Program-made: the position numbers and the translations under genes | Notes under the pieces: model-generated | Seen by the model: the letters and a program-made list of their open reading frames with translations, nothing else | What the model was told of the DNA's origin: nothing | Databases searched by the model: none | Shown: positions 12,365 to 63,448 of the stretch, piece by piece | Layout: every line of letters starts with the position of its first letter | Numbering within the stretch: position 1 is the stretch's first letter | Assembly (NCBI GenBank): GCA_951406725.2 | Contig: OX597843.1 | Coordinates: 6,014,001 to 6,078,000, forward strand | Length of the DNA: 64,000 nt | From: Octopus vulgaris | Lineage: Eukaryota | Direction of reading: 5' to 3'

Positions 12365-12401
<37 letters not shown>

Positions 12402-12402
<1 letters not shown>

Positions 12403-12559: not shown

Positions 12560-12591
<32 letters not shown>

Positions 12592-13548: not shown

Positions 13549-14371
13549 TTGTGTGTCTGTGTTTGTTCCCCTAGCATTGTTTGACAACCGATGATGGTGT
13601 GTTTACGTTCCCGTAACTTAGCGGTTCGGCAAAAGAGACCGATAAAATAAGTACTGGGCTTACAAAAGAATAAGTCCCGGGGTCGAGTTGCTCGATTAAA
13701 GGCGGTGCTCCAGCATGGCCGCAGTCAAATGACTGAAACAAGTAAAAGAGTAAAAGAGTATATAAAGCTGACGTTGTCTGTGTGTGGCAGGTTTGGTAGC
13801 CTTCAACTAACACTATCTCCTCCAAGACCCTGCGGCGCAAGTTGACCAAAATTGAGAGTATGATAGAAGAAGGCTTGCTCTTCCTTCCGTAGAAGAAAAA
13901 ATTCAAAACGGACCATGTTAACACCAAAAATTATTTACATCAAAAAGGTGCTGTTTTACTATGAAAATCCCTATTTTTTACGATTTATAAAGCTGAAGTT
14001 GTCTGTGTATGTCAGGTTTGGTAGCCTTCAACTAACACTATCTCCTCCAAGACCCTGCGGCGCAAGTTGACCAAAATTGAGAGTATGATAGAAGAAGGCT
14101 TGCTTTTCTTTCCGTAGAAGATAAAATTGATATCGGACCATGTTAACACCAAAAATTATTTACATTAAAAAGGTGCTTTTTTTTTTTGCTATGAAAACCC
14201 TATTTTTTACGATTTTTTGACTGCTATGTCGCCATTTCTCGGTGTATTTCAACCAGAAAAATGTTCAGTTAAAGAGAATAACAAGCTACAGAATGCACAA
14301 TTTTTACTTTTCAAAAATTCCGATTGTAAAGGGTCGAAACAAACCCGAGCAACGCCGGGCGATACTGCTAG
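13321..14371 (+). mobile_element. Non-autonomous Helitron family 1, with ~225 bp internal tandem duplication, interrupted by SINE A
   Basis: A|TCTATATA start, subterminal hairpin CCCGAGCAACGCCGGG, end CTAG|T; 13762-13985 duplicated at 13986-14213. Confidence 0.8.
13334..13760 (+). mobile_element. SINE A, full length, inserted in the Helitron 5' TA run
   Basis: Identity to SINE A. Confidence 0.92.
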
Positions 14372-16237: not shown

Positions 16238-16267
16238 ATTATTATTATTATTATTATTATTATTATT

Positions 16268-16668
16268 GAGTGAGTGAGAGAGCAGTGCATGCCATCAAAG
16301 TGACACTGGGATAAAATATACGAAGCCCAATATACCCATCATGACTACCCGTCTGATAAGGGTACACCAGGCACATGCATCACAACCATATGTGCGCGAC
16401 ATGGTGATCTCATATCAAGATAAACAGCACATGACCTTGCAGGTGGGGCCCAGTTAGAATTTTCTTCAGGTCGAGTAACCCATCCCACTCAAAAGGTCCC
16501 CAAATAAGGGTTGTTTAAGGATGTTGAACGAAACACCCATGTTTCCAAAGGTGAATTATCCGAACCCCAAAGAATTCCTTTCAACACATGGCTACGATGC
16601 TCCCCCACGACCTCTGCTCGTGATCAGAGATGCACATATCGTCAGCCACAAAGGACATGCTCAACTGG
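16268..16668 (-). mobile_element. Unclassified interspersed element ending in (AAT)n; second fragment at 18685-18760 (+)
   Basis: ...CCCAGTGTCACTTTGATGGCATGCACTGCTCTCTCACTC then (AAT)n in both copies. Confidence 0.65.
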
Positions 16669-18683: not shown

Positions 18684-18759
18684 ATGTCGTGATGGGTATA
18701 CTGGGCTTCGTATATTTTACCCCAGTGTCACTTTGATGGCATGCACTGCTCTCTCACTC

Positions 18760-19406
<647 letters not shown>

Positions 19407-19423
19407 TTCGAAATTTCCCCCAA

Positions 19424-19469
19424 GACACCTGATGAAGGCTGAAGGCTATATCAGCCGAAACACTGTGTT
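19424..19469 (+). ncRNA. Minimal hammerhead-like motif, canonical CUGAUGA core, stem III mutated
   Basis: GACAC-CTGATGA-A-GGCTGA aggctata TCAGCC-GAAA-CACT-GTGTT. Confidence 0.6.
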
Positions 19470-19771
19470 AACAACCAAACAAGATGAGGACAAACATCCG
19501 TCAAATGTAAACAATGTAAATAATCTTCTTCTTCTTCTTTTCTTATCTTTCTTTTTGTCGCTTTTCTTACTTTCTTCCTATTTTCATCCATTCATAAACG
19601 TCCATTTCTAAACACACACACACACACGCACACACACACGCGCGCACCCGGACCCGGACCCTTAAACACTTCCCGTCACCTTCTCAACATTTTTATTAAT
19701 GATTCATTATGAGTTTTTATCAACAAAATGCAAAGAATGTATTTACGTTTTCTTATCTACTTTTTGTTATC

Positions 19772-20749: not shown

Positions 20750-20870
<121 letters not shown>

Positions 20871-20967
20871 ATCCAAACATGAAAACACAAAGAGAAAACA
20901 CAACAACGCGAGGACGTGGAACAAATATAGTATTATTGGACGCTCAGGAAAGAAGGAAAGAAGGAGG

Positions 20968-21002
20968 GTTTAACGTTTCGAGCGGAGCTCTTCGTCGGAA
21001 AC
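20968..21002 (-). ncRNA. Minimal hammerhead-like motif (CCGACGA core) in a ~200 bp PLE-like element (20865-21065)
   Basis: Minus: GTTT-CCGACGA-A-GAGC tcc GCTC-GAAA-CG-TT-AAAC; palindromic AACGTT. Confidence 0.65.
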
Positions 21003-21090
21003 ATAGGAGAAGGAAAGATCCAGAGAAGGGAAGACAGAGGGGAAAAAATCGCCAACGGTACACGTGTGTGTGTGTGTGTGTGTGTGTGTT

Positions 21091-22642: not shown

Positions 22643-23013
22643 CTCTTTTACTTGTTTCCGTCATGTGATTGTGGCAATGCAGGAGCACTGCCTTTAGTCG
22701 AGCAAATCGACCCCCAGGACTTATTCTTTGTAAGCCTAGTACTTACTCTATCGGTCTCTTTTGCCGAACCTCTAAGTTACGGGGACGTAAACACACCAGC
22801 GTCGGTTGTCAAGCGATGTTGGGGGACAAACACAGACACACAAACATATACACAGGCATACATACATATATATATTAATCAGCCGAAATTGCGAAGATGA
22901 TTCGGTTGTTGACTGATGACTGAGAGCTTCGAAAGTCCCGTCCGTGTTTTTTGTGTCGTCTTCTAAATGTTTCACGTTCTTGTCCCAGTTTGTGTATTTT
23001 TTTACTTTTACAC

Positions 23014-24805: not shown

Positions 24806-25120
24806 ATTTATTATTATTTTCCGATTCAATTGCATTTTATTCCATCTTCTGACCGGGTCTCAACCAGGGACCTAAGGCACGTACATAGTAGATGGAGAGA
24901 AACTTCCTGAGAACGTGGGAGGCTGAGGTCAACGCAATCTTTTGAGAATCGTAAATTGCTGTTTTCCCGAGGATTTGGTCAAACTATTTGTCGCTACTTT
25001 TCTTTATCATTCCTATTTAATTGCCACGTTCCAGATATCTTAACCTCAACCTCCTTCTATTTCGACACTTTTCCAAATTCTTTTGCTGAGAGGTTTCTAT
25101 CAGCAGGTATTGTCATAACA

Positions 25121-25357
25121 AAGGCGGCGAGCTGGTAGAAACGTTAGCACGCCGGGCGAAATGCGTAGCCGTATTTCGTCTGTCGTTACGTTGTGAGTTC
25201 AAATTCCGCCGAGGTCGACTTTGCCTTTCATCCTTTCGGAGTCGATTAAATAAGTACCAGTTACGCACTGGGATCAATATAATCGACTTAATCCGTTTGT
25301 CTGTCCTTGTTTGTTCCCTCTGTGTTTAGTTCCTTGTGGGTAATAAAGAAATAGGTA
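25121..25357 (+). mobile_element. SINE B (tail type 2) with 17 bp TSD
   Basis: AGGTATTGTCATA(A/T)CAA at 25105 and 25353. Confidence 0.9.
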
Positions 25358-25374
25358 TTGTCATATCAATTAAC

Positions 25375-25427
25375 AAGGCACCGGCCTCCTAAGCCGAGGA
25401 TTGCGGATCCAAGTCCCGTCGGAGGTA
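25375..25427 (+). pseudogene. tRNA-Arg(CCT) pseudogene lacking 5' ~20 nt
   Basis: AAGGCACCGGCCTCCTAAGCCGAGGATTGCGGATCCAAGTCCCGTCGGAGGTA: anticodon arm CCGGC-CTCCTAA-GCCGA, decayed T-loop. Confidence 0.75.
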
Positions 25428-25456
25428 AAGAATCGTTCTGTAAAAAGAATTTTTAT

Positions 25457-25868
25457 AGGCGCAGGAGTGGCTGTGTGGTAAGTAGCTTACTTACCAACCA
25501 CATGGTTCTGGGTTCAGTCCCACTGCGTGGCACCTTGGGCAAGTGTCTTCTACTATAGCCTCGAGCCGACCCAATCCTTGTGAGTGGATTTGGTAGACGG
25601 AAACTGAAAGAAGCCCGTCGTGTGTATATATATATATATGTGTGTGTGTGTGTGAGTGTGTGTGTGTATGTGTGTTTGTGTCTGTGTTTGTCCCCCCTTA
25701 CCATCGCTTGACAACCGATGTTGGTGTGTTTACATACCCGTAACTTAGCGGTTCGGTAAAAGAACCCGATAGAATAAGTACAAGGCTTACAAAGAATAAG
25801 CTCTGGGGTCGATTTGTTCAACTAAAGGCGGTGCTCCAGCATGGCCGTAGTCAAATGACTAAAACAAA
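25457..25868 (+). mobile_element. SINE A
   Basis: Identity to SINE A. Confidence 0.9.
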
Positions 25869-25879
25869 TAATACAAATA

Positions 25880-26408
25880 AATATAGTGTTGTATCTTCGG
25901 TGATGATGTCTGATCTGTTAGCCTTTTTTTTTTTGTGCCTGTCTGTAAGTATCCTATAATCCCAAAGGACGATAACATTCTCTCCCTTGGTGACTGATTC
26001 TGGAGGGCGTTCAAACCTCTTCTTGTGGTGCGGGACACCATTGTGATATCATATTATCCAGCGCAAGTATTAGCCAATCATGCCTGGCTTCATATTCTGC
26101 AGATTACCTTTCGTGGGAGACAGAGCTTGTGGGCTTCTCCTTCCTTTTTCCCTAATATTTATTGCATATTCTTTGGTTTTCATCCTCTTTCTTTACAATC
26201 CAGAAATCAAAAGGGCATAATGGCTCGATTAGTAAGCAGCTTTGATTATCCTTGATTATGTCTAGTCTGTTCTTTTTTTCTAGCTTCTAATCCGTTTGGA
26301 TAAGAAAATCCCACGAACATTTTGCATTTCTCCGACTCCAGCACTCGTTCGATCCGAGGGTGCCTCTTGCTTCAAGTCCCCATTTCCGACAAAGCTTCCA
26401 GTGTATTA
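25880..26408 (-). pseudogene. Two heavily decayed R4/Dong-type endonuclease fragments in tandem
   Basis: Minus, with frameshifts: IHWKLCRKWGLE...WDFLIQTD*KLE..NRLDIIKDNQSCLLIE..CPFD..IVKKE, and EYEARHD...PESVTKGENVIVLWDYRILTDR..ANRSDII. Confidence 0.7.
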
Positions 26409-26504
26409 TTATTGTTGCTGTTGTTGTGATAAATATTTACTTTTAATCTCCATGTTTATTTCAATCTCTCGCAAAGACACACCCACCGTCCTAGGGCGAG
26501 TGAA

Positions 26505-26513
26505 CTATTATTA

Positions 26514-29022: not shown

Positions 29023-29465
29023 CATCATTCATCATTGTTCGACCGTGGCATTACGGAGGTCCTGTTGCTGGACGCCTGTATCCCTGGAGATTACATCAGG
29101 GTAGGTATTGCGAGTAGATGGCTTCCAGAGGAGAAGAGTAGAAATTACCTCTTTTTCAGCTCTACAACAATGTCCAGCAAACTGGACTCTCCTACCTTTC
29201 ACAAAAGATGACACAGGTGGTAGTTTCCCATATATTTGTACTTTGGTTGGATGGCGCTTCCACGAGATATTTTGAACTCTCATAAGGAGGCGAGTGTAGG
29301 TTCCATCCAACCGCCTCTCAAGCTTCTTTGATAACGTCCAGGTTTCTGAGCCATAGAGTAGAATTGGTTCGACTGTGGCTTTGAAGATTTCAAGTTTGAA
29401 GTCTCTACTTAGATTTGATGACCAGATCTTATGCATGTCATTACAGGCTGATAAGGCCATACCCA
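29023..29465 (-). mobile_element. RTE-clade LINE, 5'-truncated, 11 bp TSD
   Basis: KIW.SNLSRDFKLEIFKATVEPILLYGSETWTL...QFAGHC; ATGATGA tail; AGATTAGTCTT at 29012 and 29466. Confidence 0.9.
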
Positions 29466-29598
29466 AGATTAGTCTTGGTTCTACCTATCAAATCATCCAC
29501 GATGAGCTCATCTTCCATAAAGTCTGTCTTCTTGTCTTGAGACAGCATTCGCCCGGCGTGCTATCGTTTCTGCCAGCTCGCCACCTTAAAAATGTATC

Positions 29599-30706: not shown

Positions 30707-31153
30707 TATGTATATATATATATATATATATACGTATGTATATATATATACGTGTGTGTGTGTGTGTGTGTGTGTATAGCTGTCTCGGAATCAGCCCTTC
30801 GTAAACATTATGGGCCGTATATTTTATACAACGTACATGTCTTAATATCTCAAGAGCGGATTTCTTTACTCAGCTGGGTCTAATTGTCTACATTCACAGT
30901 AAGATTATCAATCTTCCGGTACCTATGTACCGAGTTTCATATTTACTTAATATTGTTATGTGTGTATTCCGCCCTAACGAGGTACCTCAATTTAAGTGCC
31001 TAATACAACTGAGTCTTACCTATATATGCATATACATATACATATATATACATATATGTTATGTATACCTTATATATATATATGTATGTATGTATGTATG
31101 TATATGTAATTATATGTATATATATGGATATACGTATGTATGTATGTCAATAT

Positions 31154-32470
31154 TGCCTAACGCAGCTCCTGCATCACTTTGATGACATTTTAAGAGCTTT
31201 GGGAGAGGGCTCCAACACCGATGTCATCTACCTTGATTTCAGCAAGGCCTTCGACAGGGTTGATCACAAGATCCTATTGAAAAAACTATCCAACATTGGT
31301 GTCTCTGGAAAGTTACTGAAATGGATCAAGTGTTTCCTAACAGACAGATCTCAACATGTTGTAGTTGAAGGAGCAAAATCAAGCCCAGCCAAAGTCAGTA
31401 GTGGCGTTCCGCAAGGCACTGTGCTGGGCCCACTTCTTTTCATCATCTACATTAATGACATTAATGACATCATCAAGCACAGCAACATAAAAATCTTTGC
31501 AGATGATTCCAAGCTACAGAAGGTCATAAATGAGGCGAGTGACCGGACATGCCTTCAGTCAGATCTACTGGCTGTTATCCAATGGGCAGAAAAAAACAAT
31601 ATGCTGCTGAACGAGGATAAATTCGAGTTAATCCACTTTGGAAAAGAGGATGCCCTGAAACTTCCATACTCCCTTCCTTCAGGTGAAACTCTCGTGGCAT
31701 CCAACAACATCAGAGACTTAGGAGTAATTGTGGACAACAACATAAGCTGGGCCACCACTCATATAAACACCAAAGTTGACATGGCCCGCAGAATGTGTTC
31801 CTGGATTCTCAGAACTTTCCAGTCGAGAGATATCCACACCATTATCCTTCTCTTCTCCACTTTTGCCCGACCCCACCTTGAATACTGTTGTCCACTGTGG
31901 TCTCCCCACACAAAACAAAGTATCATAAAAGTTGAAGCACCTCAAAGGGCAATCACAAAATAGATAGATGGCATGACAGGCCTCGACTATTGGGGTCGAC
32001 TAGAAAAGCTAAAACTTTATTCTCTCCAACGTCGCCGTGAGCGCTACATATCTGCATGATGTGGAAAATACTCCACCAGCATTGCCCAAATGATGTTGGC
32101 ATCACCTTTAAGGTACATCCAAGGCTTGGGCCCCGTGCCATCCGCCCACAACAAAAATCGCACTCTCATCTCATAACAACAATACGGCACAATTATTTCA
32201 CCTGAATTGGCCCCGCTCTCTTTAACATTACACCAAAACACATTAAAACAGAAACGGACCCTATAGGGTTCAAGAAGTCTTTGGACAGATTCCTTCAAGA
32301 AATCCCGGATAAACCCCCTACACCCGGATATATCTCTGTAAACAATAACTCTCTACTTGAGTGGGCCATAGTGCCCAAATTCTGACTTGAAAGACTTCAC
32401 CAGGTGGTGCTATTAAGTTAGACATGGCCTGAGCCAATAATGGCCGAAACCTATCAAAGTATCAAAGTAT
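31154..32470 (+). mobile_element. CR1-like LINE, 5'-truncated, reverse transcriptase pseudogene
   Basis: CLTQLL, YLDFSKAFD, SGVPQGTVLGP, FADD, DLGV, RPHLEYC motifs. Frameshift at ~31960, then YWGRLEKLKLYSLQRRRERY with stops; (TATCAAAG)2 tail; lies in TA/TATG repeats. Confidence 0.95.
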
Positions 32471-35691: not shown

Positions 35692-36167
35692 GAGATAACT
35701 ACAATAATAAAATAATTAATTAATAAATATACGTAAATAATCTTTTGAAATATAAATATATTCTTTAATATATATATGATACAAAATATACAATAAATGA
35801 AAACTAAATACACTTTAAACTATATATATTAAATCAAATTACTAATTGATATATTTATTTAATAAACATCCAAATAAAGTCTAATACCCATTAAGCAATT
35901 AATACACCCATTATGTAAACTAACTATATAATTAATATATAAATGTAGTATCTATAGATTTAATATATCACTCAAAAATATAGTTGACTAAAATATCAAT
36001 TAATATAAAAACTAATTTACTTAAATGTAATACTACTTGATAAATATACCACTTAATTATTAAATAATGTATTGTCTAACAAAATTAATTCTCAAATTAA
36101 ATTATGTGTAATACGTTAAATCCCTTTATAAATATAATAATAGAGCATTCTAAATAAATAGATATCA

Positions 36168-36565
36168 TCTTTATATATAAAAGTGAAGTTGTGTGTCTGT
36201 CCCCTACGATTTAGATTCCTAACTATTCCCACATTTTGCGGTGCAGTTTAACCAAAAGCGGGTATCTTATAGTCGTGATTCATATCGAGCCCTTCTGGGT
36301 ATTAGCGCGCGTCTACGATGAGTCTACGATTTAAAAAAAATTACCATCATTTTTTTTCCGTTTTAATGCATTTTTTTCGCTATTATATAAGGTAAGTAAC
36401 TCTCTAAAAATGTCTACGATGAGTCAACGATTTTTTAAAAAAATTACCATCATTTGTTTTCCATTTTTAATGCATTTTTTTGCTACTTTTTGGCTATAAC
36501 TCTCTAAAAATGCTTATATAGTTATTTCCCTTACAAACCCGAGCAACGCCGGGCGATACTGCTAG
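36168..36565 (+). mobile_element. Non-autonomous Helitron family 2
   Basis: A|TC start, hairpin CCCGAGCAACGCCGGG, CTAG|T end, no TSD. Confidence 0.85.
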
Positions 36566-38156: not shown

Positions 38157-38559
38157 TAGCAGTATCGCCCGGCGTTGCTCGGGTTTGTAAGGGAAATAAC
38201 TATATAAGCATTTTTAGAGAGTTATAGCCAAAAAATAACAAAAAAATGCATTAAAAATGGGAAAAAAATTATGGGAAATTTTTTTTTAAATCGTTGATTT
38301 ATCGTAAACATTTTTAGAGAGTTACTTCCCTTATATAATAGCGAAAAAAATGCATTAAAATGGAAAAAAAATGATGGTAAATTATTTTTAAAATCGTAGG
38401 CTCATCGTAGACGCGCGCTAATACCCAGAAGGGCTCGATATGAATCACGACTATAAGATACCTGGTTTTGGTTAAACTGCACCGCAAAATGTGGGAGTAG
38501 TTAGGAATCTAAATCGTAGGAGACAGACACTCACACAACTACAGTTTTATATATATAGA
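38156..38559 (-). mobile_element. Non-autonomous Helitron family 2, second copy
   Basis: Reverse complement closely matches 36168-36565 with the same termini. Confidence 0.85.
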
Positions 38560-38569
38560 TATATATATA

Positions 38570-39402: not shown

Positions 39403-39564
39403 TTATTATTATTATTATTATTATTATCATCATTATTATTATGTAATGGTATGCACAAATGTGTTATATTTGTAATTAACGCCCTTGATAGCGAGTCACA
39501 AATATTACCAGCAGCGCCGCCGTCATAATCATTACGACCAACATTATTATAATTGTTGTTGTTA

Positions 39565-43709
<4,145 letters not shown>

Positions 43710-44014
43710 TGTAATAGTATGGACAAATTTGCTATATTTGGAAATAATGTCCTTGATAGCAAACCACAACTACTTTCTTAGTATATATATATACATATAT
43801 GCATATGTGTGTTTACACACACACACACACATGACGGACATTTCAAACAATCCTTCCTGCGCCCAAATACATCATATTTGTCTCATTATTACTCTTAGTT
43901 TGTTTGTTTTTTTTTGTTTTTGTTTTTTGGTGGGATGAGAGGTTTACGTTAAACCTGCTTTACACGCAAAACACTCACAGCAACACACACACACAGGCCC
44001 CATACACCATAACA

Positions 44015-44256
44015 CACACATACATACATACATACATACATACATACATACATACATACATACATACATACATACACACATTCATATATACGTACATACA
44101 TACATACATACATACATGCATGCATGCATACATACATACATATATACGTACATAGATACATACATACATCATACATCATACATACATATATACATACATA
44201 CATACATACCTACATACATACATACATCATACATCATACATACATACATACATACA

Positions 44257-44288
<32 letters not shown>

Positions 44289-44450
44289 CATACATACATA
44301 CACACATACACACATACATACATACATACATACACATACATACATACATACATACATACATACATACACATACATATATACATACATACATACATACCTA
44401 CATACATACATACATACATACATACATACATACATACACACATACATACA

Positions 44451-44484
<34 letters not shown>

Positions 44485-44636
44485 CATACATACATACATA
44501 CATACATACATACATACATACATACATCATACATCATACATACATACATATATACGTACATAGATACATACATACACACACACACATACATACATACATA
44601 CACACGCACACACACACATACATACACACATACATT

Positions 44637-44668
<32 letters not shown>

Positions 44669-44858
44669 CGTACACACATACATACATACATATATACATA
44701 CATATATACGTACATACACTCATACATACATACATACATACATGCATGCATGCATACATACATAGATACATACATATATACATACATATATACGTACATA
44801 CATACATACATACATACATACATACATACATACATACATACATACATACATACATACA

Positions 44859-44888
<30 letters not shown>
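44015..44888. repeat. (CATA)n microsatellite
   Basis: Direct reading. Confidence 0.95.
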
Positions 44889-44889
<1 letters not shown>

Positions 44890-45462
44890 GTTGTAGCTAG
44901 GACACTATAATGAAAGCCATCGGAAGGCTAACCGTAAGGACAAGGAAATATGAACCCACAATATAGTAGAAGCCACAGTCACTCATAATTAAAAGGTGTT
45001 CTGGTAGAATGTCCTAGTGAAGACCTCAATAAAATGGAAACACAACAGACCTGATATAATGATTTGGGATAGAAAAGAGAAACTGTGTACAGTTGTGGAA
45101 ATTAGCTGCCGAGCGGATGTTACCAGAAAGCTGAAGATCAGTGAAAAAGAGAACACCTATGCTGAACTATTGAGAAATCTGTACTTGCTCTATCCAGATT
45201 ACAATTTCAGGTTTATACCTGTAATTATTGAGGCATACTGGGATATGTAACACACTGCCTAAATACCTATACTGAGAAATTAGGCTTTTCAAACCCAGAA
45301 AGGAGAAAGCTAAATCGAAGGCTACAGATCCAATCCATCAGTGGAACTGTAAAAATCTGTAAAACTTTCCAGAAGTTCATCATTTAAATATATATGAGCA
45401 TATCAAGATATACATCTATATGCATGAGAAGACACACATAAAATAAAACATACAAATCTGCA
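44889..45462 (+). mobile_element. R4-clade-like non-LTR element (restriction-like endonuclease C-terminus), 5'-truncated, embedded in (CATA)n
   Basis: KHNRPDIMIWDRKEKLCTVVEISC..D....KISEKENTY..L....YPDY.FRFIPVII...GYV...LQIQSISGTVKICKTFQKFII*; PD-(D/E)xK-type motif. Confidence 0.82.
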
Positions 45463-45811
45463 TATATACATACATACATGCATGCATACATATATATACA
45501 TACATACATGCATGCATACATACATGCATACATATATGTATACATACATACATGCATACATATATGTATACATATGTACATACATGCATGCATACATACA
45601 TGCATACATATATGTATACATATATACATACATACATGCATGCATACATATACATACATACATGCATACATACATATATGCATACATATATACATACATA
45701 CATGCATACATATATACATACATACATGCATACATATATACATACATACATCATACATACATGCACACACATATATACATACACGCATATATACATACAT
45801 ACATACATGCA

Positions 45812-45856
<45 letters not shown>

Positions 45857-45878
45857 TTGCATACATGCATACATACAT

Positions 45879-46266
45879 AGGCGCAGGAATGGCTGTGTGG
45901 TAAGAAGCTTGCTTGCCAACCACATGGTTCCGGGTTCAGTCCCACTGCATGGCACCTTGGGCAAGTGTCTTCTACTATAGCTTCGGGCCGACCAAAGCCT
46001 TGTGAATGAATTTGGTAGACGGAAACTGAAAGAAGCCTGTCGTATATGTGTATGTGTGTTTGTGTGTGTGTGTGTGTCTATGTCTGTGTGTCTGTGTTTG
46101 TCCCCCACCATCGCTTGACAACCGATGTTGGTGTGTTTACGTCTCCGTAACTTAGCGTCCGATTGAATAAGTACCAGGCTTACAAAGAATAAGTCCTAGG
46201 GTCGATTTGTTCGACTAAAGGTGGTGCTGCAGCATGGCCGCAGTCAAATCACTGAAATAAGTAAAA
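45879..46266 (+). mobile_element. SINE A
   Basis: Identity to SINE A. Confidence 0.9.
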
Positions 46267-46899: not shown

Positions 46900-47132
46900 T
46901 CATCATCATCATCACCACCGCTACAGTCATCGTCGCCGACGCCGCTGTCAGCATCACCACCTTTACCATCACCACCACCACTTCCACCATCACCACCACC
47001 ACCATCACCACCACCACCACCACCATCATCATCACCATCATCATCATCACCACCACCACTATCATCATCATCACCACCACCACCACTATCATCATCATCA
47101 TCATCACCACCACCACTATCATCATCATCATC

Positions 47133-47166
<34 letters not shown>

Positions 47167-47813
47167 CCACCACCACTATCATCATCATCATCACCACCAC
47201 CACCACCACTATCATCATTATCATCACCACCACCAATATCATCATCATCATCATCACCACCACCACCACTATCATCATCATCATCATCACCACCACCACT
47301 ATCATCATCATCATCATCGTCACCACCACCACTATAATCATCATCATCATCACCACCACCACTATTATCATCATCATCATCACCACCACCACCACCACCA
47401 CTATCATCATCATCATCATCACCACCACCACTATCATCATCATCATCATCATCATCACCACCACCACTATCATCATCATCATCATCACCACCTCCACCAC
47501 CACCACTATCATCATCATCATCATCATCATCACCACCACCACTATCATCATCATCATCATCACCACCACCACAATCATCATCATCATCATCATCACCACC
47601 ACCACTATCATCATCATCATCATCACCCAAACCACCACCACCACTATCATCATCATCATCATCATCACCACCACCATCATCATCATCATCATCACCACCA
47701 CCACTATCATCATCATCATCATCACCACCACCACTATTATCATCATCATCATCATCATCAACACCACCACTATCATCATCACCACCACCACCACTATCAT
47801 CATCATCATCATC

Positions 47814-47847
<34 letters not shown>

Positions 47848-48490
47848 TCACCACCACCACTATCATCATCATCACCACCACCACCACCACTATCATCATC
47901 ATCATCATCACCACAACCACCACCACCACTATCATCATCATCATCACCACCACCACCACCACCACTATCATCATCATCATCATCACCACCACCACCACCA
48001 CTATCATCATCATCATCATCACCACCACCACTATCATCATCATCATCATCACCACCACCACCACCACCACTATCATCATCATCATCATCACCACCACCAC
48101 TATTATCATCATCATCATCACCACCACCACCACCACCACTATCATCATCATCATATTAACCACCACCACTATCATCATCATCATCATCACCACCACCACT
48201 ATCATCATCATCATCATCACCACCACCACTATTATCATCATCATCATCATCATCATCACCACCACCACTATCATCATCATCACCACCACCACTATTATCA
48301 TCATCATCATCATCACCACCACCACCACCACCACTATCATCATCATCATCATCACCACCACCACTATTATCATCATCATCATCATCACCACCACCACCAC
48401 CACCACTATCATCATCATCATCACCACCACCACCACTATTATCATCATCATCATCACCACCACCACCACCACTATCATCATCATCATCAT

Positions 48491-48522
<32 letters not shown>

Positions 48523-49512
48523 TCACCACCACTATCATCATCATCATCATCACCACCACCACTATCATCATCATCATCATCACCACCACCACCACCACCA
48601 CTATCATCATCATCATCATCACCACCACCACTACTATTATCATCATCATCATCATCACCACCACCACCACTATCATCATCATCATCATCATCACCACCAC
48701 CACCACCACCACCACCACTATCATCATCATCATCATCACCACCACCACTACTATTATCATCATCATCATCATCATCACCACCACCACCACCACTATCATC
48801 ATCATCATCATCACCACCACCACTACTATTATCATCATCATCATCATCACCACCACCTACTATTATCATCATCATCATCATCACCACCACCACTATCATC
48901 ATCATCATCATCACCACCACCACTATCATCATCATCATCACCACCACTATCATCATCATCATCATCACCACCACCACTATCATCATCATCATCACCACCA
49001 CCACCACCACTATCATCATCATCATCATCACCACCACCACTACTATTATCATCATCATCATCATCACCACCACCACCACCACTATCATCATCATCATCAT
49101 CATCACCACCACCACCAACACTATCATCATCATCACCACCACCACCACCACCACTATCATCATCATCATCATCATCACCACCACCACTATCATCATCATC
49201 ATCACCACCACCACCACTATCATCATCATCATCATCACCACCACCACTATCATCATCATCACCACCACCACCACCACTATCATCATCATCATCATCACCA
49301 CCACCACTATCATCATCATCATCATCACCACCACCACCACCACCACTATCATCATCATCATCATCACCACCACCACCACCACCACTATCATCATCATCAT
49401 CATCACCACCACCACCACCACTACCATCATCATCATCACCACCACCACCACTATCATCACCATCATCATCACCACCACCACCACCACTATCATCATCATC
49501 ATCATCACCACC

Positions 49513-49546
<34 letters not shown>

Positions 49547-49590
49547 TCACCACCACCACCACCACTATCATCATCATCAACATCACCACC

Positions 49591-49651
<61 letters not shown>

Positions 49652-50223
49652 CCACCACCACCACTATCATCATCATCATCATCATCACCACCACCACCAC
49701 CACTATCATCATCATCATCATCATCACCACCACCACCACCACTATCATCATCATCATCATCACCACCACCACCACCTATCATCGTCATCATCATCATCAC
49801 CACCACCACTATCATCATCATCACCACCACCACCACCACCACTATCATCATCATCATCATCACCACCACCACCACCACCACTATCATCATCATCATCATC
49901 ACCACCACCACCACTATCATCATCATCATCATCACCACCACCACCACCACTATCATCGTCATCATCATCATCACCACCACCACTATCATCATCATCACCA
50001 CCACCACCACCACCACTATCATCATCATCATCATCACCACCACCACCACCACCACTATCATCATCATCACCACCACCACCACCACCACTATCATCATCAT
50101 CATCATCATCACCACCACCACTATCATCATCATCATCACCACCACCACTATCATCATCATCATCACCACCACCACCACTATTATCATCATCATCATCATC
50201 ACCACCACCACTATCATCATCAT

Positions 50224-50255
<32 letters not shown>

Positions 50256-51387
50256 CCACCACCACCACTATCATCATCATCATCATCATCACCACCACTA
50301 TCATCATCATCATCATCATCACCACCACCACTATCATCATCATCATCATCATCACCACCACCACTATCATCATCATCATCATCACCACCACCACTATCAT
50401 CATCATCATCACCACCACCACCACTATCATCATCATCATCATCATCACCACCACCACTATCATCATCATCATCATCATCACCACCACCACTATCATCATC
50501 ATCATCATCACCACCACCACCACTATCATCATCATCATCATCATCACCACCACCACTATCATCATCATCATCATCACCACCACCACCACTATCATCATCA
50601 TCATCATCATCACCACCACCACTATCATCATCATCATCATCACCACCACCACCACTATCATCATCATCATCATCATCACCACCACCACTATCATCATCAT
50701 CATCATCACCACCACCACCACTATCATCATCATCATCATCATCACCACCACCACTATCATCATCATCATCATCACCACCACCACCACTATCATCATCATC
50801 ATCATCATCACCACCACCACTATCATCATCATCATCATCATCACCACCACCACTATCATCATCATCATCAACATCACCACCACCACTATCATCATCATCA
50901 TCATCACCACCACCATCATCATCATCATCATCATCACCACCACCACTATCATCATCATCATCATCACCACCACCACTATCATCATCATCATCATCATCAC
51001 CACCACCACTATCATCATCATCATCATCATCATCACCACCACCACTATCATCATCATCATCACCACCACCACCACTATCATCATCATCATCATCATCACC
51101 ACCACCACTATCATCATCATCATCATCATCACCACCACCACTATCATCATCATCATCATCATCATCACCACCACCACTATCATCATCATCATCACCACCA
51201 CCACCACTATCATCATCATCATCATCACCACCACCACCCCCACTATCATCATCATCATCACCACCACCACCACTATCATCATCATCATCATCATCACCAC
51301 CACCACTATCATCATCATCATCACCACCACCACCACTATCATCATCATCATCAACATCACCACCACCACTATCATCATCATCATCAT

Positions 51388-51419
<32 letters not shown>

Positions 51420-52239
51420 TCACCACCACCACTATCATCATCATCATCATCACCACCACCACTATCATCATCATCATCATCATCACCACCACCACTATTA
51501 TCATCATCATCATCATCATCACCACCACCACTATCATCATCACCACCACCACCACTATCATCATCATCATCATCACCACCACCACTATCATCATCATCAT
51601 CACCACCACCACCACCACCACTATCATCATCATCATCACCACCACCACCACCACCACTATCATCATCATCATCATCATCACCACCACCACCACCACTATC
51701 ATCATCATCATCATCACCACCACCACCACCACCACTATCATCATCATCATCATCATCACCACCACCACCACCACTATCATCATCATCATCACCACCACCA
51801 CCACCACTATCATCATCATCACCACCACCACCACCACCACTATCATCATCATCATCATCATCACCACCACCACCACCACTATCATCATCATCATCATCAC
51901 CACCACCACTATCATCATCATCATCATCACCACCACCACTATCATCATCATCATCATCACCACCACCACCACCACTATTATCATCATCATCATCATCACC
52001 ACCACCACTATCATCATCACCACCACCACTATTATCATCATCATCATCATCACCACCACCACTATCATCATCATCATCATCACCACCACCACTATCATCA
52101 CCACCACCACCACCACCACTATTATCATCATCATCATCATCACCACCACCACCACTATCATCATCATCATCATCACCACCACCACTATCATCATCATCAT
52201 CATCATCACCACCACCACTATCATCATCATCATCATCAT

Positions 52240-52271
<32 letters not shown>

Positions 52272-55200
52272 CCACCACCACTATCATCATCATCATCATC
52301 ATCACCACCACCACTATCATCATCATCATGATCATCACCACCACCACTATTATCATCATCATCATCATCACCACCACCACTATCATCATCATCATCATCA
52401 CCACCACCACTATCATCACCACAACCACCACCACCACTATTATCATCATCATCATCATCACCACCACCACTATCATCATCATCATCATCATCACCACCAC
52501 CACTATCATCATCATCATCATCACCACCACCACTATCATCATCATCATCACCACCACCACCACTATCATCATCATCATCATCATCACCACCACCACTATC
52601 ATCATCATCATCATCATCACCACCACCACTATCATCATCATCATCATCATCACCACCACCACTATCATCATCATCATCATCATCACCACCACCACTATCA
52701 TCATCATCATCATCATCACCACCACCACTATCATCATCATCATCATCACCACCACCACTATCATCATCATCATCATCATCACCACCACCACTATCATCAT
52801 CATCATCATCACCACCACCACTATCATCATCATCATCATCATCACCACCACCACTATCATCATCATCATCATCATCACCACCACCACTATCATCTTCATC
52901 ATCATCATCACCACCACCACTATCATCATCATCATCACCACCACCACCACTATCATCATCATCATCATCATCACCACCACCACTATCATCATCATCATCA
53001 TCACCACCACCACTATCATCATCATCATCATCACCACCACCACTATTATCATCATCATCATCATCATCACCACCACCACTATCATCATCATCATCACCAC
53101 CACCACCACTATCATCATCATCATCATCACCACCACCACTATCATCATCATCATCATCACCACCACCACTATCATCATCATCATCATCATCATCATCACC
53201 ACCACCACTATCATCATCATCATCATCACCACCACCACCACTATCATCATCATCATCAACACCACCACCACTATCATCATCATCATCATCACCACCACTA
53301 TCATCATCATCACCACCACCACTATTATCATCATCATCATCATCATCACCACCACCACTATCATCATCATCATCACCACCACCACCACTATCATCATCAT
53401 CATCATCACCACCACCACCACTATCATCATCATCATCATCACCACCACCACTATCATCATCATCATCATCATCACCACCACCACTATCATCATCATCATC
53501 ACCACCACCACCACTATCATCATCATCATCATCACCACCACCACCACTATCATCATCATCATCATCACCACCACCACTATCATCATCATCATCATCACCA
53601 CCACCACTATTATCATCATCATCATCATCACCACCACCACTATCATCATCATCATCATCATCACCACCACCACTATCATCATCATCATCATCACCACCAC
53701 CACCACCACTATCATCATCATCATCACCACCACCACCACTATCATCATCATCATCATCACCACCACCACCACTATCATCATCATCATCATCATCATCACC
53801 ACCACCACTATCATCATCATCATCATCACCACCACCTACTATCATCATCATCATCATCATCATCACCACCACCACTATCATCATCATCATCATCACCACC
53901 ACCACTATCATCATCATCATCATCATCACCACCACCACTATCATCATCATCATCATCACCACCACCACCACCACTATTATCATCATCATCATCATCATCA
54001 CCACCACCACCTATCATCATCATCATCACCACCACCACCACTATCATCATCATCATCATCATCACCACCACCACTATCATCATCATCATTATCACCACCA
54101 CCACTATCATCATCATCATCATCACCACCACCACTATTATCATCATCATCATCATCATCACCACCACCACTATCATCATCATCATCATCACCACCACCAC
54201 TATCATCATCATCATCATCATCACCACCACCACTATCATCATCATCATCATCACCACCACCACCACTATCATCATCATCATCATCATCATCACCACCACC
54301 ACCACTATCATCATCATCATCACCACCACCACCACTATCATCATCATCATCACCACCACCACCACTATCATCATCATCACCACCACCACCACTATCATCA
54401 TCATCATCACCACCACCACCACTATCATCATCATCATCACCACCACCACCACTATCATCATCATCATCACCACCACCACCACTATCATCATCATCATCAT
54501 CATCATCACCACCACCACTATCATCATCATCATCATCACCACCACCACTACTATCATCATCATCATCATCATCACCACCACCACTATCATCATCATCATC
54601 ATCACCACCACCACTATCATCATCATCATCATCACCACCACCACTATTATCATCATCATCATCATCATCACCACCACCACTATCATCATCATCATCACCA
54701 CCACCACCACTATCATCATCATCATCATCATCACCACCACCACTATCATCATCATCATCATCACCACCACCACTATCATCATCATCATCATCATCACCAC
54801 CACCACCACTATCATCATCATCATCACCACCACCACCACTATCATCATCATCATCATCACCACCACCACTATCATCATCATCATCATCACCACCACCACT
54901 ATCATAATCATCATCATCACCACCACCACTATTATCATCATCATCATCATCATCACCACCACCACTATCATCATCATCATCACCACCACCACCACTATCA
55001 TCATCATCATCATCATCACCACCACCACTATCATCATCACCACCACCACCACTATCATCATCATCATCATCACCACCACCACTATCATCATCATCATCAT
55101 CATCACCACCACCACTATCATCATCATCACCACCACCACCACCACTATCATCATCATCATCACCACCACCACCACCACCACTATCATCATCATCATCATC

Positions 55201-56879
55201 ATCACCACCACCACCACCACTATCATCATCATCATCATCACCACCACCACCACCACTATCATCATCATCATCATCATCACCACCACCACTATCATCATCA
55301 TCACCACCACCACCACCACCACTATCATCATCATCACCACCACCACCACCACCACTATCATCATCATCATCATCATCACCACCACCACTATCATCATCAT
55401 CATCATCACCACCACCACTATCATCATCATCATCATCACCACCACCACTATCATCATCATCATCATCACCACCACCACTATTATCATCATCATCATCATC
55501 ACCACCACCACCACCACCACCACTATCATCATCATCATCATCACCACCACCACCACCACCACCATCATCATCATCACCACCACCACTATCATCACCACCA
55601 CCACCACCACCACTATTATCATCATCATCATCATCACCACCACCACCACTATCATCATCATCATCATCATCACCACCACCACTATCATCATCATCATCAT
55701 CATCACCACCACCACTATCATCATCATCATCATCATCACCACCACCACTATCATCATCATCATCATCATCACCACCACCACTATCATCATCATCATCATC
55801 ATCACCACCACCACTATCATCATCATCATGATCATCACCACCACCACTATCATCATCATCATCATCACCACCACCACTATCATCATCATCATCATCACCA
55901 CCACCACTATCATCACCACCACCACCACCACCACTATTATCATCATCATCATCATCACCACCACCACCACTATCATCATCATCATCATCATCACCACCAC
56001 CACTATCATCATCATCATCATCACCACCACCACTATCATCATCATCATCACCACCACCACCACTATCATCATCATCATCATCATCACCACCACCACTATC
56101 ATCATCATCATCATCATCACCACCACCACTATCATCATCATCATCATCATCATCACCACCACCACTATCATCATCATCATCATCACCACCACCACTCATC
56201 ATCATCATCATCATCACCACCACCACTATCATCATCATCATCATCACCACCACCACCACTATCATCATCATCATCATCATCACCACCACCACTATCATCA
56301 TCATCATCATCACCACCACCACTATCATCATCATCATCATCATCACCACCACCACTATCATCATCATCATCATCATCACCACCACCACTATCATCATCAT
56401 CATCATCATCACCACCACCACTATCATCATCATCATCACCACCACCACCACTATCATCATCATCATCATCATCACCACCACCACTATCATCATCATCATC
56501 ATCACCACCACCACTATCATCATCATCATCATCACCACCACCACTATTATCATCATCATCATCATCACCACCACCACCACTATCATCATCATCATCACCA
56601 CCACCACCACTAGATCATCATCATCATCATCACCACCACCCCACTATCATCATCATCATCATCACCACCACCACCACTATCATCATCATCATCATCATCA
56701 TCACCACCACCACTATCATCATCATCATCACCACCACCACCACTATCATCATCATCATCATCATCACCACCACCACTATCATCATCATCATCATCACCAC
56801 CACCACTATCATCATCATCACCACCACCACTATTATCATCATCATCATCATCATCACCACCACTATCATCATCATCATC

Positions 56880-56913
<34 letters not shown>

Positions 56914-58796
56914 CCACCACCACCACTATCATCATCATCATCATCACCACCACCACTATCATCATCATCATCATCATCATCACCACCACTATCATCATCA
57001 TCATCACCACCACCACCACTATCATCATCATCATCATCATCACCACCACCACCATCATCATCATCATCACCACCACCACTATCATCATCATCATCATCAC
57101 CACCACCACTATCATCATCATCATCATCATCACCACCACCACTATCATCATCATCATCATCATCACCACCACCACCACATCATCATCATCATCATCACCA
57201 CCACCACTATCATCATCATCATCATCACCACCACCACTATCATCATCATCATCATCACCACCACCACCACTATCATCATCATCATCATCATCACCACCAC
57301 CACTATCATCATCATCATCATCACCACCACCACTATCATCATCATCATCATCATCATCACCACCACCACTATCATCATCATCATCACCACCACCACCACT
57401 ATCATCATCATCATCATCATCACCACCACCACTATCATCATCATCATCATCACCACCACCACTATTATCATCATCATCATCATCATCACCACCACCACTA
57501 TCATCATCATCATCACCACCACCACCACTATCATCATCATCATCATCATCACCACCACCACTATCATCATCATCATCATCACCACCACCAATATCATCAT
57601 CATCATCATCACCACCACCACTATTATCATCATCATCATCATCATCACCACCACCACTATCATCATCATCATCATCACCACCACCACTATCATCATCATC
57701 ATCATCATCACCACCACCACTATCATCATCATCATCATCACCACCACCACCACTATCATCATCATCATCATCATCATCACCACCACCACCACTATCATCA
57801 TCATCATCACCACCACCACCACTATCATCATCATCATCACCACCACCACCACTATCATCATCATCATCACCACCACCACCACTATCATCATCATCATCAC
57901 CACCACCACTATCATCATCATCATCACCACCACCACCACTATCATCATCATCATCACCACCACCACCACTATCATCATCATCATCATCATCATCACCACC
58001 ACCACTATCATCATCATCATCATCACCACCACCACCACTATCATCATCATCATCATCATCACCACCACCACTATCATCATCATCATCATCACCACCACCA
58101 CTATCATCATCATCATCATCACCACCACCACTATTATCATCATCATCATCATCATCACCACCACCACTATCATCATCATCATCACCACCACCACCACTAT
58201 CATCATCATCATCATCATCACCACCACCACTATCATCATCATCATCATCACCACCACCACTATCATCATCATCATCATCATCATCACCACCACCACTATC
58301 ATCATCATCATCACCACCACCACCACTATCATCATCATCATCATCATCACCACCACTATCATCATCATCATCATCACCACCACCACTATCATCATCATCA
58401 TCATCACCACCACCACTATTATCATCATCATCATCATCATCACCACCACCACTATCATCATCATCATCACCACCACCACTATCATCATCATCATCATCAT
58501 CACCACCACCACTATCATCATCATCATCACCACCACCACTATCATCATCATCATCATCACCACCACCACTATCATCATCATCATCATCATCACCACCACC
58601 ACTATCATCATCATCACCACCACCACCACCACCACTATCATCATCATCATCACCACCACCACCACCACTATCATCATCATCATCATCATCACCACCACCA
58701 CCACCACTATCATCATCATCATCATCACCACCACCACCACCACCACTATCATCATCATCATCATCATCCACCACCACCACCATCATCATCATCATC

Positions 58797-58827
<31 letters not shown>

Positions 58828-59132
58828 CCACCACCACCACCACTATCATCATCATCATCATCATCACCACCACCACCACCACTATCATCATCATCATCAT
58901 CACCACCACCACTATCATCATCATCATCATCATCACCACCACCACTATCATCATCATCATCATCACCACCACCACTATTATCATCATCATCATCATCACC
59001 ACCACCACTATCATCATCACCACCACCACTATTATCATCATCATCATCATCACCACCACCACTATCATCATCATCATCATCACCACCACCACCACTATCA
59101 TCACCACCACCACCACCACCACCACTATCATC

Positions 59133-59164
<32 letters not shown>

Positions 59165-60256
59165 CATCACCACCACCACTATCATCATCATCATCATCAT
59201 CACCACCACCACTATCATCATCATCATGATCATCACCACCACCACTATCATCATCATCATCATCACCACCACCACTATCATCATCATCATCACCACCACC
59301 ACCACTATCATCATCATCATCATCATCACCACCACCACTATCATCATCATCATCATCATCACCACCACCACTATCATCATCATCATCATCATCATCACCA
59401 CCACCACTATCATCATCATCATCATCATCACCACCACCACTATCATCATCATCATCATCACCACCACCACTATCATCATCATCATCACCACCACCACCAC
59501 AATCATCATCATCATCACCACCACCACCACCACTACCATCATCATCATCATCACCACCACCACCACCACTATCATCATCATCATCACCACCACCACCACC
59601 ACTATCATCATCATCATCATCACCACCACCACTATCATCATCATCATCACCACCACCACCACCACTATCATCATCATCATCATCACCACCACCACCACTA
59701 CTATTATCATCATCATCACCACCACCACCACCACTATCATCATCATCATCATCACCACCACCACCACTATCATCATCATCATCATCACCACTATCATCAT
59801 CATCATCATCACCACCACCACCACCACTATCATCATCATCATCACCACCACCACCACTATCATCATCATCATCATCACCACCACCACCACTATCATCATC
59901 ATCATCATCACCACCACCACCACTATCATCATCATCATCATCACCACCACCACCACCACTATCATCATCATCATCACCACCACCACTATCATCATCATCA
60001 TCATCATCACCACCACCACTATCATCATCATCATCATCATCACCACCACTATCATCATCATCATCATCATCACCACCACTATCATCATCATCATCACCAC
60101 CACCACCACCACTATCATCATCATCATCATCACCACCACCACTATCATCATCATCATCATCACCACCACCACCACTATCATCATCATCATGATCATCACC
60201 ACCACTATCATCATCATCATCATCACCACCACCACCACTATCATCATCATCATCAT

Positions 60257-60288
<32 letters not shown>

Positions 60289-61352
60289 CCACCACCACTA
60301 TCATCATCATCATCATCACCACCACCACCACTATCATCATCATCATCATCACCACCACCACCACTATCATCATCATCATCATCACCACCACCACCACTAT
60401 CATCATCATCATCATCATCATCACCACCACTATCATCATCATCATCACCACCACCACCACCACTATCATCATCATCATCATCACCACCACCACCACCACT
60501 ATCATCATCATCATCACCACCACCACCACTATCATCATCATCATCATCACCACCACCACTATCATCATCATCATCATCACCACCACCACCACTATCATCA
60601 TCATCATCATCACCACCACCACTACTATCATCATCATCATCATCACCTCCACCACTACTATTATCATCATCATCATCACCACCACCACTACTATCATCAT
60701 CATCATCATCATCACCACCACCACTATCATCATCATCATCATCACCACCACCACTATCATCATCATCATCATCACCACCACCACTATCATCATCATCATC
60801 ACCACCACCACCACCACTATCATCATCATCATCATCACCACCACCACTATCATCATCATCATCATCACCACCACCACCACCACTATCATCATCATCACCA
60901 CCACCACCACTATCATCATCATCATCATCACCACCACCACCACCACTATCATCATCATCATCACCACCACCACTATCATCATCATCATCATCATCACCAC
61001 CACTATCATCATCATCATCATCACCACCACCACTATCATCATCATCATCATCATCACCACCACTATCATCATCATCATCATCATCACCACCACCACTATC
61101 ATCATCATCATCATCATCACCACCACCACTATCATCATCATCATCACCACCACCACCACTATCATCATCATCATCATCACCACCACCACCACCACTATCA
61201 TCATCATCATCATCACCACCACCACCACCACTATCATCATCATCATCACCACCACCACCACCACTATCATCATCATCATCATCACCACCACCACTACTAT
61301 TATCATCATCATCATCATCATCACCACCACCACTACTATTATCATCATCACC

Positions 61353-61386
<34 letters not shown>

Positions 61387-63396
61387 CCACCACCACCACT
61401 ATCATCATCATCATCATCACCACCACCACCACTATCATCATCATCATCATCACCACCACCACCACTATCATCATCATCATCATCACCACCACCACCACTA
61501 TCATCATCATCATGATCATCACCACCACTATCATCATCATCATCATCACCACCACCACTATCATCATCATCATCATGATCATCACCACCACTATCATCAT
61601 CATCATCATCACCACCACCACTATCATCATCATCATCATCACCACCACCACCACTATCATCATCATCATGATCATCACCACCACTATCATCATCATCATC
61701 ATCACCACCACCACTATCATCATCATCATCATCATCACCACCACCACTATCATCATCATCATCATCATCACCACCACCACCACCACTATCATCATCATCA
61801 TCATCACCACCACCACTATCATCATCATCATCACCACCACCACCACTATCATCATCATCATCATCATCACCACCACTATCATCATCATCATCATCATCAC
61901 CACCACCACCACCACTATCATCATCATCATCATCATCATCACCACCACTATCATCATCATCATCATCATCACCACCACCACCACTATCATCATCATCATC
62001 ATCATCACCACCACCACTATCATCATCATCATCACCACCACCACCACCACTATCATCATCATCCACCACCACTATCATCATCATCATCATCACCACCACC
62101 ACCACCACTATCATCATCATCATCACCACCACCACCACCACTATCATCATCATCACCACCACCACCACCACTATCATCATCATCATCATCACCACCACCA
62201 CCACCACTATCATCATCATCATCATCATCACCACCACCACCACCACTATCATCATCATCATCATCATCATCACCACCACTATCATCATCATCATCATCAT
62301 CACCACCACCACTATCATCATCATCATCATCATCACCACCACCACTATCATCATCATCACCACCACCACCACCACTATCATCATCATCATCATCACCACC
62401 ACTATCATCATCATCATCATCACCACCACCACCACCACTATCATCATCATCATCATCACCACCACCACCACCACTATCATCATCATCACCACCACCACCA
62501 CCACTATCATCATCATCATCATCACCACCACCACCACCACTATCATCATCATCATCATCACCACCACCACCACCACTATCATCATCATCATCACCACCAC
62601 CACCACCACCACTATCATCATCATCATCATCACCACCACCACCACTATCATCATCATCATCATCACCACCACCACCACAACTATCATCATCATCATCATC
62701 ATCACCACCACCACCACTATCATCATCATCATCATCATCACCACCACTATCATCATCATCATCACCACCACCACCACTATCATCATCATCATCATCATCA
62801 CCACCACTATCATCATCATCATCACCACCACCACCACTATCATCATCATCATCACCACCACCACCACCACCACTATCATCATCATCATCATCACCACCAC
62901 CACCACCACTATCATCATCATCATCACCACCACCACCACCACCACTATCATCATCATCATCATCACCACCACCACCACTATCATCATCATCATCATCACC
63001 ACCACCACCACAACTATCATCATCATCATCATCATCACCACCACCACCACCACTATCATCATCATCATCATCATCACCACCACTATCATCATCATCATCA
63101 CCACCACCACCACTATCATCATCATCACCACCACCACCACCACCACCATCATCATCACCACCACCACTACTATTATCATCATCATCATCATCACCACCAC
63201 CACCACTATCATCATCATCATCATCATCATCACCACCACTATCATCATCATCATCATCATCACCACCACCACCACCACTATCATCATCATCATCACCACC
63301 ACCACTATCATCATCATCATCATCACCACCACCACTATTATCATCATCATCATCATCACCACCACCACCACCACCACTATCATCATCACCACCACC

Positions 63397-63427
<31 letters not shown>

Positions 63428-63448
63428 CCACCACCACCACCACCACCG
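46900..63448. repeat. 16.5 kb compound satellite, unit about 27-36 bp: (ACC)3-6 ACT [ATT] (ATC)4-7
   Basis: Direct reading; plus strand almost devoid of G. Confidence 0.98.

Follow-up and report, generated by a model that had tools for sequence, protein, structure and literature searches.

A decayed R4/Dong-like endonuclease remnant between CATA repeats of Octopus vulgaris and its possible preference for a tetranucleotide target

The CATA-flanked copy and its repeat surroundings

The window, that is, the whole stretch of 64,000 nucleotides analysed here (Octopus vulgaris contig OX597843.1, positions 6,014,001 to 6,078,000), is repeat-saturated animal DNA in which no long coding gene is evident among the listed open reading frames (ORFs). 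On its plus strand, positions 44889-45387 hold what is left of an R4/Dong-like non-LTR retrotransposon, a decayed, 5′-truncated C-terminal fragment with its restriction-like endonuclease (RLE). This ORF end, which covers the end of a zinc-knuckle helix and the RLE domain, is broken by three in-frame stops (44951, 44990 and 45005) and by two frameshifts, near 44907 and near 45234, and closes with a terminal TAA at 45385-45387. It is followed by a 3′ UTR of 73 nt (45388-45460, plus strand), whose last ~20 nt, with a motif at 45445-45458, recur at 12523-12545. The copy is a real element, and a dead one.

On its 5′ side, the copy abuts a plus-strand (CATA)n tract of 875 bp with 88% matches (44014-44888), the putative target, which agrees with the ~870 bp adjoining the truncation point that a preliminary description of this DNA had reported. 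The tract closes with 92 bp (44797-44888) of perfect (CATA)23, and no perfect CATA run on either strand of the window is longer. Homology to relatives begins at 44890, the first codon past CATA, within an 'HD-VVAK' stretch after the zinc knuckle, and because this onset falls exactly at the CATA junction, the truncation point is real and exact to about 2 nt. Downstream, a degenerate CATA/CATG/TA tract (45461-45879, plus strand), representing tail and/or target, shares unit and strand with the 5′ flank, its CATA purity reaching only 33-65% with CATG and TA mixed in. A common octopus SINE (45880-46046, plus strand, 93% to the copy at 13337) stands at the end of this tract and appears to have been inserted later than the element. 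The sequence directly upstream of the 5′ tract (43773-44013) has no second copy within the window except for simple repeat.

Two Dong-like fragments in the same window serve as controls, and (AAT)n is found at the 5′ junction of both. The first, a 3′ fragment at 18832-19267 (plus strand), lies between (AAT)24 and (AAT)34, as the TAA context described for it beforehand implied; it belongs to a different subclade, and the three best protein matches of its 18890-19060 part come from Octopus bimaculoides (75-87% identity). The second (24813-26505, minus strand) is an older remnant that SINEs interrupt and whose 5′ side carries (AAT)n. Upstream of 18832, the (AAT)24 forms the tail of a different repeat (18687-18760, 96% to 16271-16344), whose family, seen at 18687-18831 and 16238-16344 (minus strand), ends in (AAT)n, the Dong-like fragment having been inserted in that tail. 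The two divergent Dong-like copies have in common a UTR stem-loop (19195-19226, plus strand; about 24858-24888, minus strand) with a loop starting in UGG, about 45 nt before the TAA tail, which none of 2000 shuffles equalled; when the two UTRs were compared under three scoring schemes, 0-2 of 2000 shuffles were as good. This stem-loop is a candidate RT recognition signal.

Other repeats of the window include a 16.5-kb array of CAT/CAC triplet blocks (46968-63439; 87% matches at a period of about 33), whose plus strand is nearly free of G, and a 4.2-kb (ATT)n array (39543-43710) with zero GC over 3 kb. Either side of the latter, a 62-bp unique stretch follows a (TAT)n run (39443-39504 and 43711-43772, 81% identical), which suggests a local tandem duplication. 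Minisatellites occupy 5565-6286 and 7008-7467, the first with 5.8 copies of a 124-bp unit and the second with 5 copies of a 92-bp unit, and a 360-bp repeat with an internal 103-bp duplication forms an inverted pair (36167-36521 and 38200-38560; 1.7 kb apart, 91% identical), a related element being present at 13761-14370. A weak, partial tRNA match at 9754-9808 (minus strand), just above the Rfam gathering score and the sole Rfam match at that score, is probably a pseudogene or a SINE head.

The labels SINE, CR1-like and PLE used for other repeats of the window come from a reading of the sequence. A fairly intact CR1-like RT fragment (31148-32460) has a short TATCAAAG tandem tail and TATG/TA repeats on both sides, and a decayed coding-like stretch on the minus strand (29030-29540), read by eye, resembles the C-terminus of an RTE-type LINE. 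Directly after (AAT)34(ATG)13, the stretch 19407-19522 contains a canonical minimal type-I hammerhead with its core at 19429 and a 6-bp helix II, and is probably a Penelope-like 3′ end. Short elements edged by TA-rich repeats at 20863-21065 (minus strand) and 22870-23010 (plus strand) carry hammerhead-like cores, a CCGACGA variant at 20998 and CTGATGA near 22915, and are possibly further Penelope-like (PLE) ends. Tract flanks were also compared all against all (378 pairs), but low-complexity pairs dominated the outcome, which was set aside.

Endonuclease identity and clade placement

Translated with X at the three stops and across the two frameshifts, the 44889-45387 fragment is identical to its nearest relative, P0002, at 99 of 165 positions (60%), and shows 47% identity to P0163; the 76 residues free of stops matched 228 cluster representatives at E up to 0.001. 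The fragment preserves a PD-(D/E)xK motif in the form RPD-x12-E...K, aligned with all relatives shown. A structure model of P0002 (pLDDT 93.4) was used in a fold search, in which the top four PDB matches were R2 proteins (TM 0.63-0.72; RLE domain E 2e-6, TM 0.71), a result that belongs to this relative and not to the window fragment itself. Within the PDB, matches came from the fold search only; a profile of the relatives' alignment (A2) had none among PDB sequences at E<0.5. Pfam returned nothing relevant on the window fragments (one non-significant match among four queries), and in the five full-length relatives scanned, all with a single ORF, RVT_1 was present and the APE family absent in every case. 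The motif, the fold match of P0002 and the relatives with RT and without APE make the RLE assignment solid and support the R4-like, RLE-type call of the preliminary description.

Phylogenetically, the CATA-flanked fragment and the TAA-flanked fragment at 18832 part ways. In a C-terminal tree of 50 rows hand-picked from 286 proteins plus the two window fragments, the former falls in a 23-row group (support 100/100) and the latter in a separate 12-row group (100/99), and a longer 28-row tree agrees on separate subclades (SH-aLRT 100). Both trees are midpoint-rooted and contain no named R4, NeSL, HERO or CRE reference, and the window fragments fill only 28-35% of tree columns where flagged. The two trees support the earlier proposal of a lineage distinct from TAA-targeting Dong. 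The RT motif also differs, being mostly FVDD in the CATA-side relatives versus YMDD in Dong. Protein P0154 scores 279 bits against a partial, 571-aa relative of the Dong fragment versus 76-96 bits against R2, and has 30% identity to a relative of the Dong fragment.

At their N-terminus, six of eight aligned full-length relatives have a W...G[YF]-x-x-R...LW block, in which Pfam reports no Myb. R4/Dong clade members are described with a divergent SANT/Myb-like N-terminal region without zinc fingers (PMC7998251) and with a 5′ HDV-like ribozyme (PMC3774820). Judged by its sequence, the CATA-flanked element likely belongs to the R4/Dong clade, where it is probably a sister lineage of Dong. Dong in the strict sense is ruled out by flanks of CATA, not TAA, and by the separate, supported subclade; identity with Waldo is likewise ruled out, as an RLE domain is present and the relatives have no APE family.

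The fold-back at 12.4-12.7 kb

With at most one mismatch, the 14-nt tail motif occurs in the window only at 12526 and 45445 (0.05 matches expected; none of 100 shuffles reached two), and in both places it is followed by CATA. The recurrence at 12526 of the UTR motif with (CATA)n, which had been pointed out before, is thereby upheld and extends to 20 of 23 identical nt between 12523-12545 (plus strand) and 45442-45464. This 23-nt tail match is the sole link between the two loci.

At 12.4-12.7 kb, the homology of 12523-12545 stops exactly where an inverted arm begins (12400-12522, minus strand), which consists of 6 nt of CATA phase and a 115-bp segment. On the other side, a perfect (CATA)11 (12546-12589, plus strand) separates the motif from the direct arm, a second copy of the 115-bp segment (12590-12704, plus strand) that may be an R4-like 3′ terminus or a Penelope-like end. 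The outer flank of the inverted arm is a (CATA)4 (12386-12401, minus strand), which runs on into the (TG)n tail of an older SINE, and that of the direct arm is a degenerate (CATA)n (12705-12979, plus strand). As the segment copies (12400-12516 minus, 12590-12706 plus; 91-92% identical) are inverted arms only 60 nt apart, they form one fold-back locus and stem from one event, and two independent insertions were rejected. The CATA-sense tails of the arms point outward, and all outer and inner segment ends touch CATA in the same sense.

According to the preliminary description, the motif-bearing element continues into a 115-bp terminal segment that ends in (CATA)n in two copies. The CATA at the segment ends stands, while the two copies turn out to be the inverted arms; likewise, the continuation is seen at 12.5 kb and not beside the ORF-bearing copy, where the segment is absent, its two matches in the window both lying at 12.4-12.7 kb. 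Through the 23-nt link, the segment can be assigned, with somewhat better than even odds, to the terminus of the CATA-flanked element's family. The RNA fold is unusual neither in the segment (z -0.6) nor in the UTR, the z values for the two ranging from -0.55 to -1.3. A likeness of the segment to the Dong UTR stem-loop, perceived by eye, is unproven, at least 381 of 2000 shuffles being as good under three scoring schemes; against the two Dong UTRs separately, 390 and 1488 of 2000 shuffles were as good.

A less favoured origin of the segment, though one to be taken seriously, is a separate Penelope-like (pLTR) end that was inserted in the CATA tail of the R4-like copy or read through from it. 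The fold-back would then be PLE-made and silent on the RLE element, so that this origin competes only with the account of the fold-back and is compatible with CATA targeting. PMC8557442 describes inverted 5′-truncated duplicates as a usual trait of PLEs that is not seen in non-LTR TPRT, and precisely this hallmark, an inverted 5′-truncated copy next to a direct one, is present at 12.4-12.7 kb. In PLE remnants, minimal hammerheads are also described as pairs on opposite strands, spaced 100-700 bp (PMC4209133). In the 115-bp segment, 12624-12656 are laid out like a hammerhead: helix II has 5 bp and GAA is followed by a palindrome, an arrangement found in 18 of 5000 shuffles by a criterion chosen after seeing the sequence, and the window does contain a canonical minimal hammerhead, at 19429. 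However, 793 of 5000 shuffles contain the relaxed hammerhead pattern by itself. In each arm, two positions of the core (U4, G5) are substituted and the G10.1-C11.1 pair is missing, and neither arm has the intact CUGANGA...GAAA core of the minimal hammerhead. Rfam found no hammerhead in the segment, its below-threshold matches reflecting hairpin and simple repeats, and it likewise missed the canonical one at 19429, so this test is insensitive. No GIY-YIG ORF is linked to the segment within the window. An origin from PLEs also has to accommodate the R4-like tail motif inside the fold-back, which ends exactly at the arm junction, and the zero matches of two segment motifs and the tail motif in part of the PMC8557442 supplement. 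The arms, 92% complementary, and the TA readable on both outer sides would also fit a MITE-like DNA element whose terminal inverted repeats measure 115 bp and which duplicated a TA, but this is very improbable, as the spacer consists of an R4-like tail and (CATA)11, a TA is trivial inside TATG/CATA, and the window has only one such structure.

The case for a CATA preference

The reading preferred here is that of a dead RLE copy of the R4/Dong clade, from a subclade apart from TAA-targeting Dong, which preferred to insert in (CATA)n; its probability is put at roughly 0.55. Of the RLE-type lineage with tetranucleotide specificity suggested initially, the RLE is confirmed, the distinct lineage is supported, and the specificity, which comes from one 5′ junction in a microsatellite-saturated genome, is plausible but unproven, at about the same odds. 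Because a truncated copy cannot have its own tail as 5′ flank, the CATA on that side is informative on the target. Informative 5′ junctions in (CATA)n number one of one, since the 5′ end of the 12.5-kb copy joins the inverted arm, not the target, and no target site duplication is readable inside a microsatellite. In a prokaryotic contig collection, a 26-nt pattern taken from the 115-bp segment had no match, and for P0002 none of 162 pattern hits was confirmed.

By analogy with R2 and Dong, the protein would bind its own RNA at the 3′ end, the RLE would nick a CATA tract on the TATG strand, and reverse transcription would be primed by the ...TATG-3′OH released in this way. Synthesis would stop after about 570 nt, leaving CATA on both sides, and both tracts would later expand and decay. 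On the simplest reading of the fold-back, a single event would have joined two 5′-truncated cDNAs of the same RNA end head to head, or a single cDNA would have folded back on itself; the RNA end would have read motif, internal CATA and 115-bp end, and a TATG|CATA junction would have offered the same primer on both strands. The segment missing at 45.4 kb may reflect priming at, or deletion between, CATA tracts.

The strongest competitor holds that the element has no true endonuclease specificity. It would have a general microsatellite bias and an encoded (CATA)n tail, inserting loosely in TA-rich simple repeats, perhaps helped by pairing between RNA tail and DNA; the CATA 5′ flank would be luck, or a short target duplication that later expanded. 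Microsatellites are indeed frequent neighbours. One is found at the 5′ end of all five hand-delimited LINE/PLE fragments, including the APE-type CR1-like one beside (TATG)4, and 5.7% of window sites have a perfect SSR of some kind, 16 bp or longer, just before them. A CATA tract precedes one of 12 full-head SINE copies (about 8%); among 65 SINE-type blast hits, many of whose ends are not true element ends, only one has a CATA-rich 5′ flank, and that hit sits inside the element's own 3′ tract. Moreover, the element seems older than the pure CATA run at its junction, and because the element is old, this run is most simply explained by later expansion; 875 bp is thus probably not the tract size at insertion. 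On the other hand, the match in unit and strand to the 3′ tract, taken as a perfect same-strand CATA stretch of 16 bp or more on the 5′ side, holds for just 0.13-0.55% of window positions, depending on the mask, and the two Dong controls show strict unit matching. A coincidental CATA 5′ junction thus has a chance of about 0.2% to 8%, on one junction, and a mere bias is judged distinctly less probable than a CATA preference.

Finally, an upstream element that was lost or goes unrecognised could have left the 5′ tract as its tail, brought next to the copy by tandem insertion or inter-CATA deletion so that the junction is not the primary insertion site; although the (AAT)24 before the 18832 Dong fragment is such a tail of another repeat, this is improbable, given that 43773-44013 has no counterpart elsewhere in the window and that the tract is preceded by neither the motif nor the 115-bp end; an insertion in the CATA tail of another element would, besides, still count as CATA targeting. 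A much bolder extension of the preferred reading is doubtful: an undescribed R4-clade subclade whose RLE was retargeted from TAA to ACAY-type tetranucleotides, converging on Waldo, with a copy of the target in its own 3′ UTR, with two-strand priming at TATG|CATA that yields Penelope-like fold-backs, and as a source of the long CATA tracts of octopus. Fold-back insertions of the Penelope-like kind are not thought to be made by non-LTR elements.

Comparison with known systems

R4-Dong elements are found among molluscs almost only in cephalopods (PMC10294476), and a full-length Dong consensus has been reported for O. bimaculoides (PMC9115989); supplementary files 1-4 of the latter work, in the case of files 3 and 4 parts of them, gave no matches to the motifs. 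In O. vulgaris, Dong-R4 comprises 51 consensus families and 92.7 Mb, of which five families with 1,129 insertions were recently active (PMC13282606); the word 'target' is not present in the main text of that study. In the literature covered, which lies outside Repbase Reports and the Zenodo O. vulgaris library, there was no report of an RLE element that targets CATA or ACAY. The Zenodo library probably holds the family of the CATA-flanked element.

If the preference is real, the octopus hosts two related RLE lineages with different microsatellite targets, TAA and CATA, the latter matching the target of an unrelated APE lineage. As a natural pair, the two would allow a test of what determines RLE specificity, be it the Myb-like domain, the endonuclease or RNA pairing, a question also relevant to R2-type gene-insertion tools. 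The advance is incremental, repeat-target switching being well documented in RLE elements and the CATA-flanked copy being dead.

RLE elements that target microsatellites are already known. Rex6 prefers TA repeats. Togen targets (TG)n, and some HERO families are microsatellite-specific, with no tetranucleotide target described in the part of the source at hand (PMC4640811). Togen and HERO thus combine an RLE with microsatellite targets, as is seen here, but they are NeSL/HERO-related, not Dong-related. R2 proteins (R2Bm, R2Tg and turtle R2 structures) have the same RLE fold (TM 0.62-0.72), and TPRT is assumed for the CATA-flanked element by analogy with them; in contrast, R2 targets 28S rDNA, and its sequence similarity is far lower (76-96 bits). 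Penelope-like elements resemble the 12.4-12.7 kb locus in the inverted 5′-truncated duplicate and the microsatellite flanks, whereas this locus has a broken hammerhead core and no linked GIY-YIG ORF, and its fold-back contains the tail of an RLE element.

The closest parallels in target are Waldo and Dong, for which ACAY and TAA targets, respectively, are established (PMC3812793), in keeping with the background given in the preliminary description. The ACAY target of Waldo (WaldoAg1/2, WaldoFs1) is of the same repeat class as (CATA)n; however, Waldo encodes an APE and the CATA-flanked element an RLE, and any shared target would therefore be convergent. Dong itself is grouped with APE elements in PMC3812793, whereas PMC7998251 describes R4/Dong as REL-endonuclease elements that insert in rDNA or microsatellites, with TAA used in most insects, molluscs and cnidarians. 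Dong (B. mori Dong, DongAg, DongBg and the octopus 'LINE/Dong-R4') likewise has a C-terminal zinc knuckle and RLE, 5′ truncation and a microsatellite site, and relatives of the CATA element resemble it in having a single ORF of about 1,130 aa with RT. Unlike Dong, which is flanked by TAA, the present element is flanked by CATA and falls in another subclade, and its 73-nt UTR is without the stem-loop motif common to the two Dong copies of the window. By analogy, the CATA-flanked element would nevertheless work like Dong.
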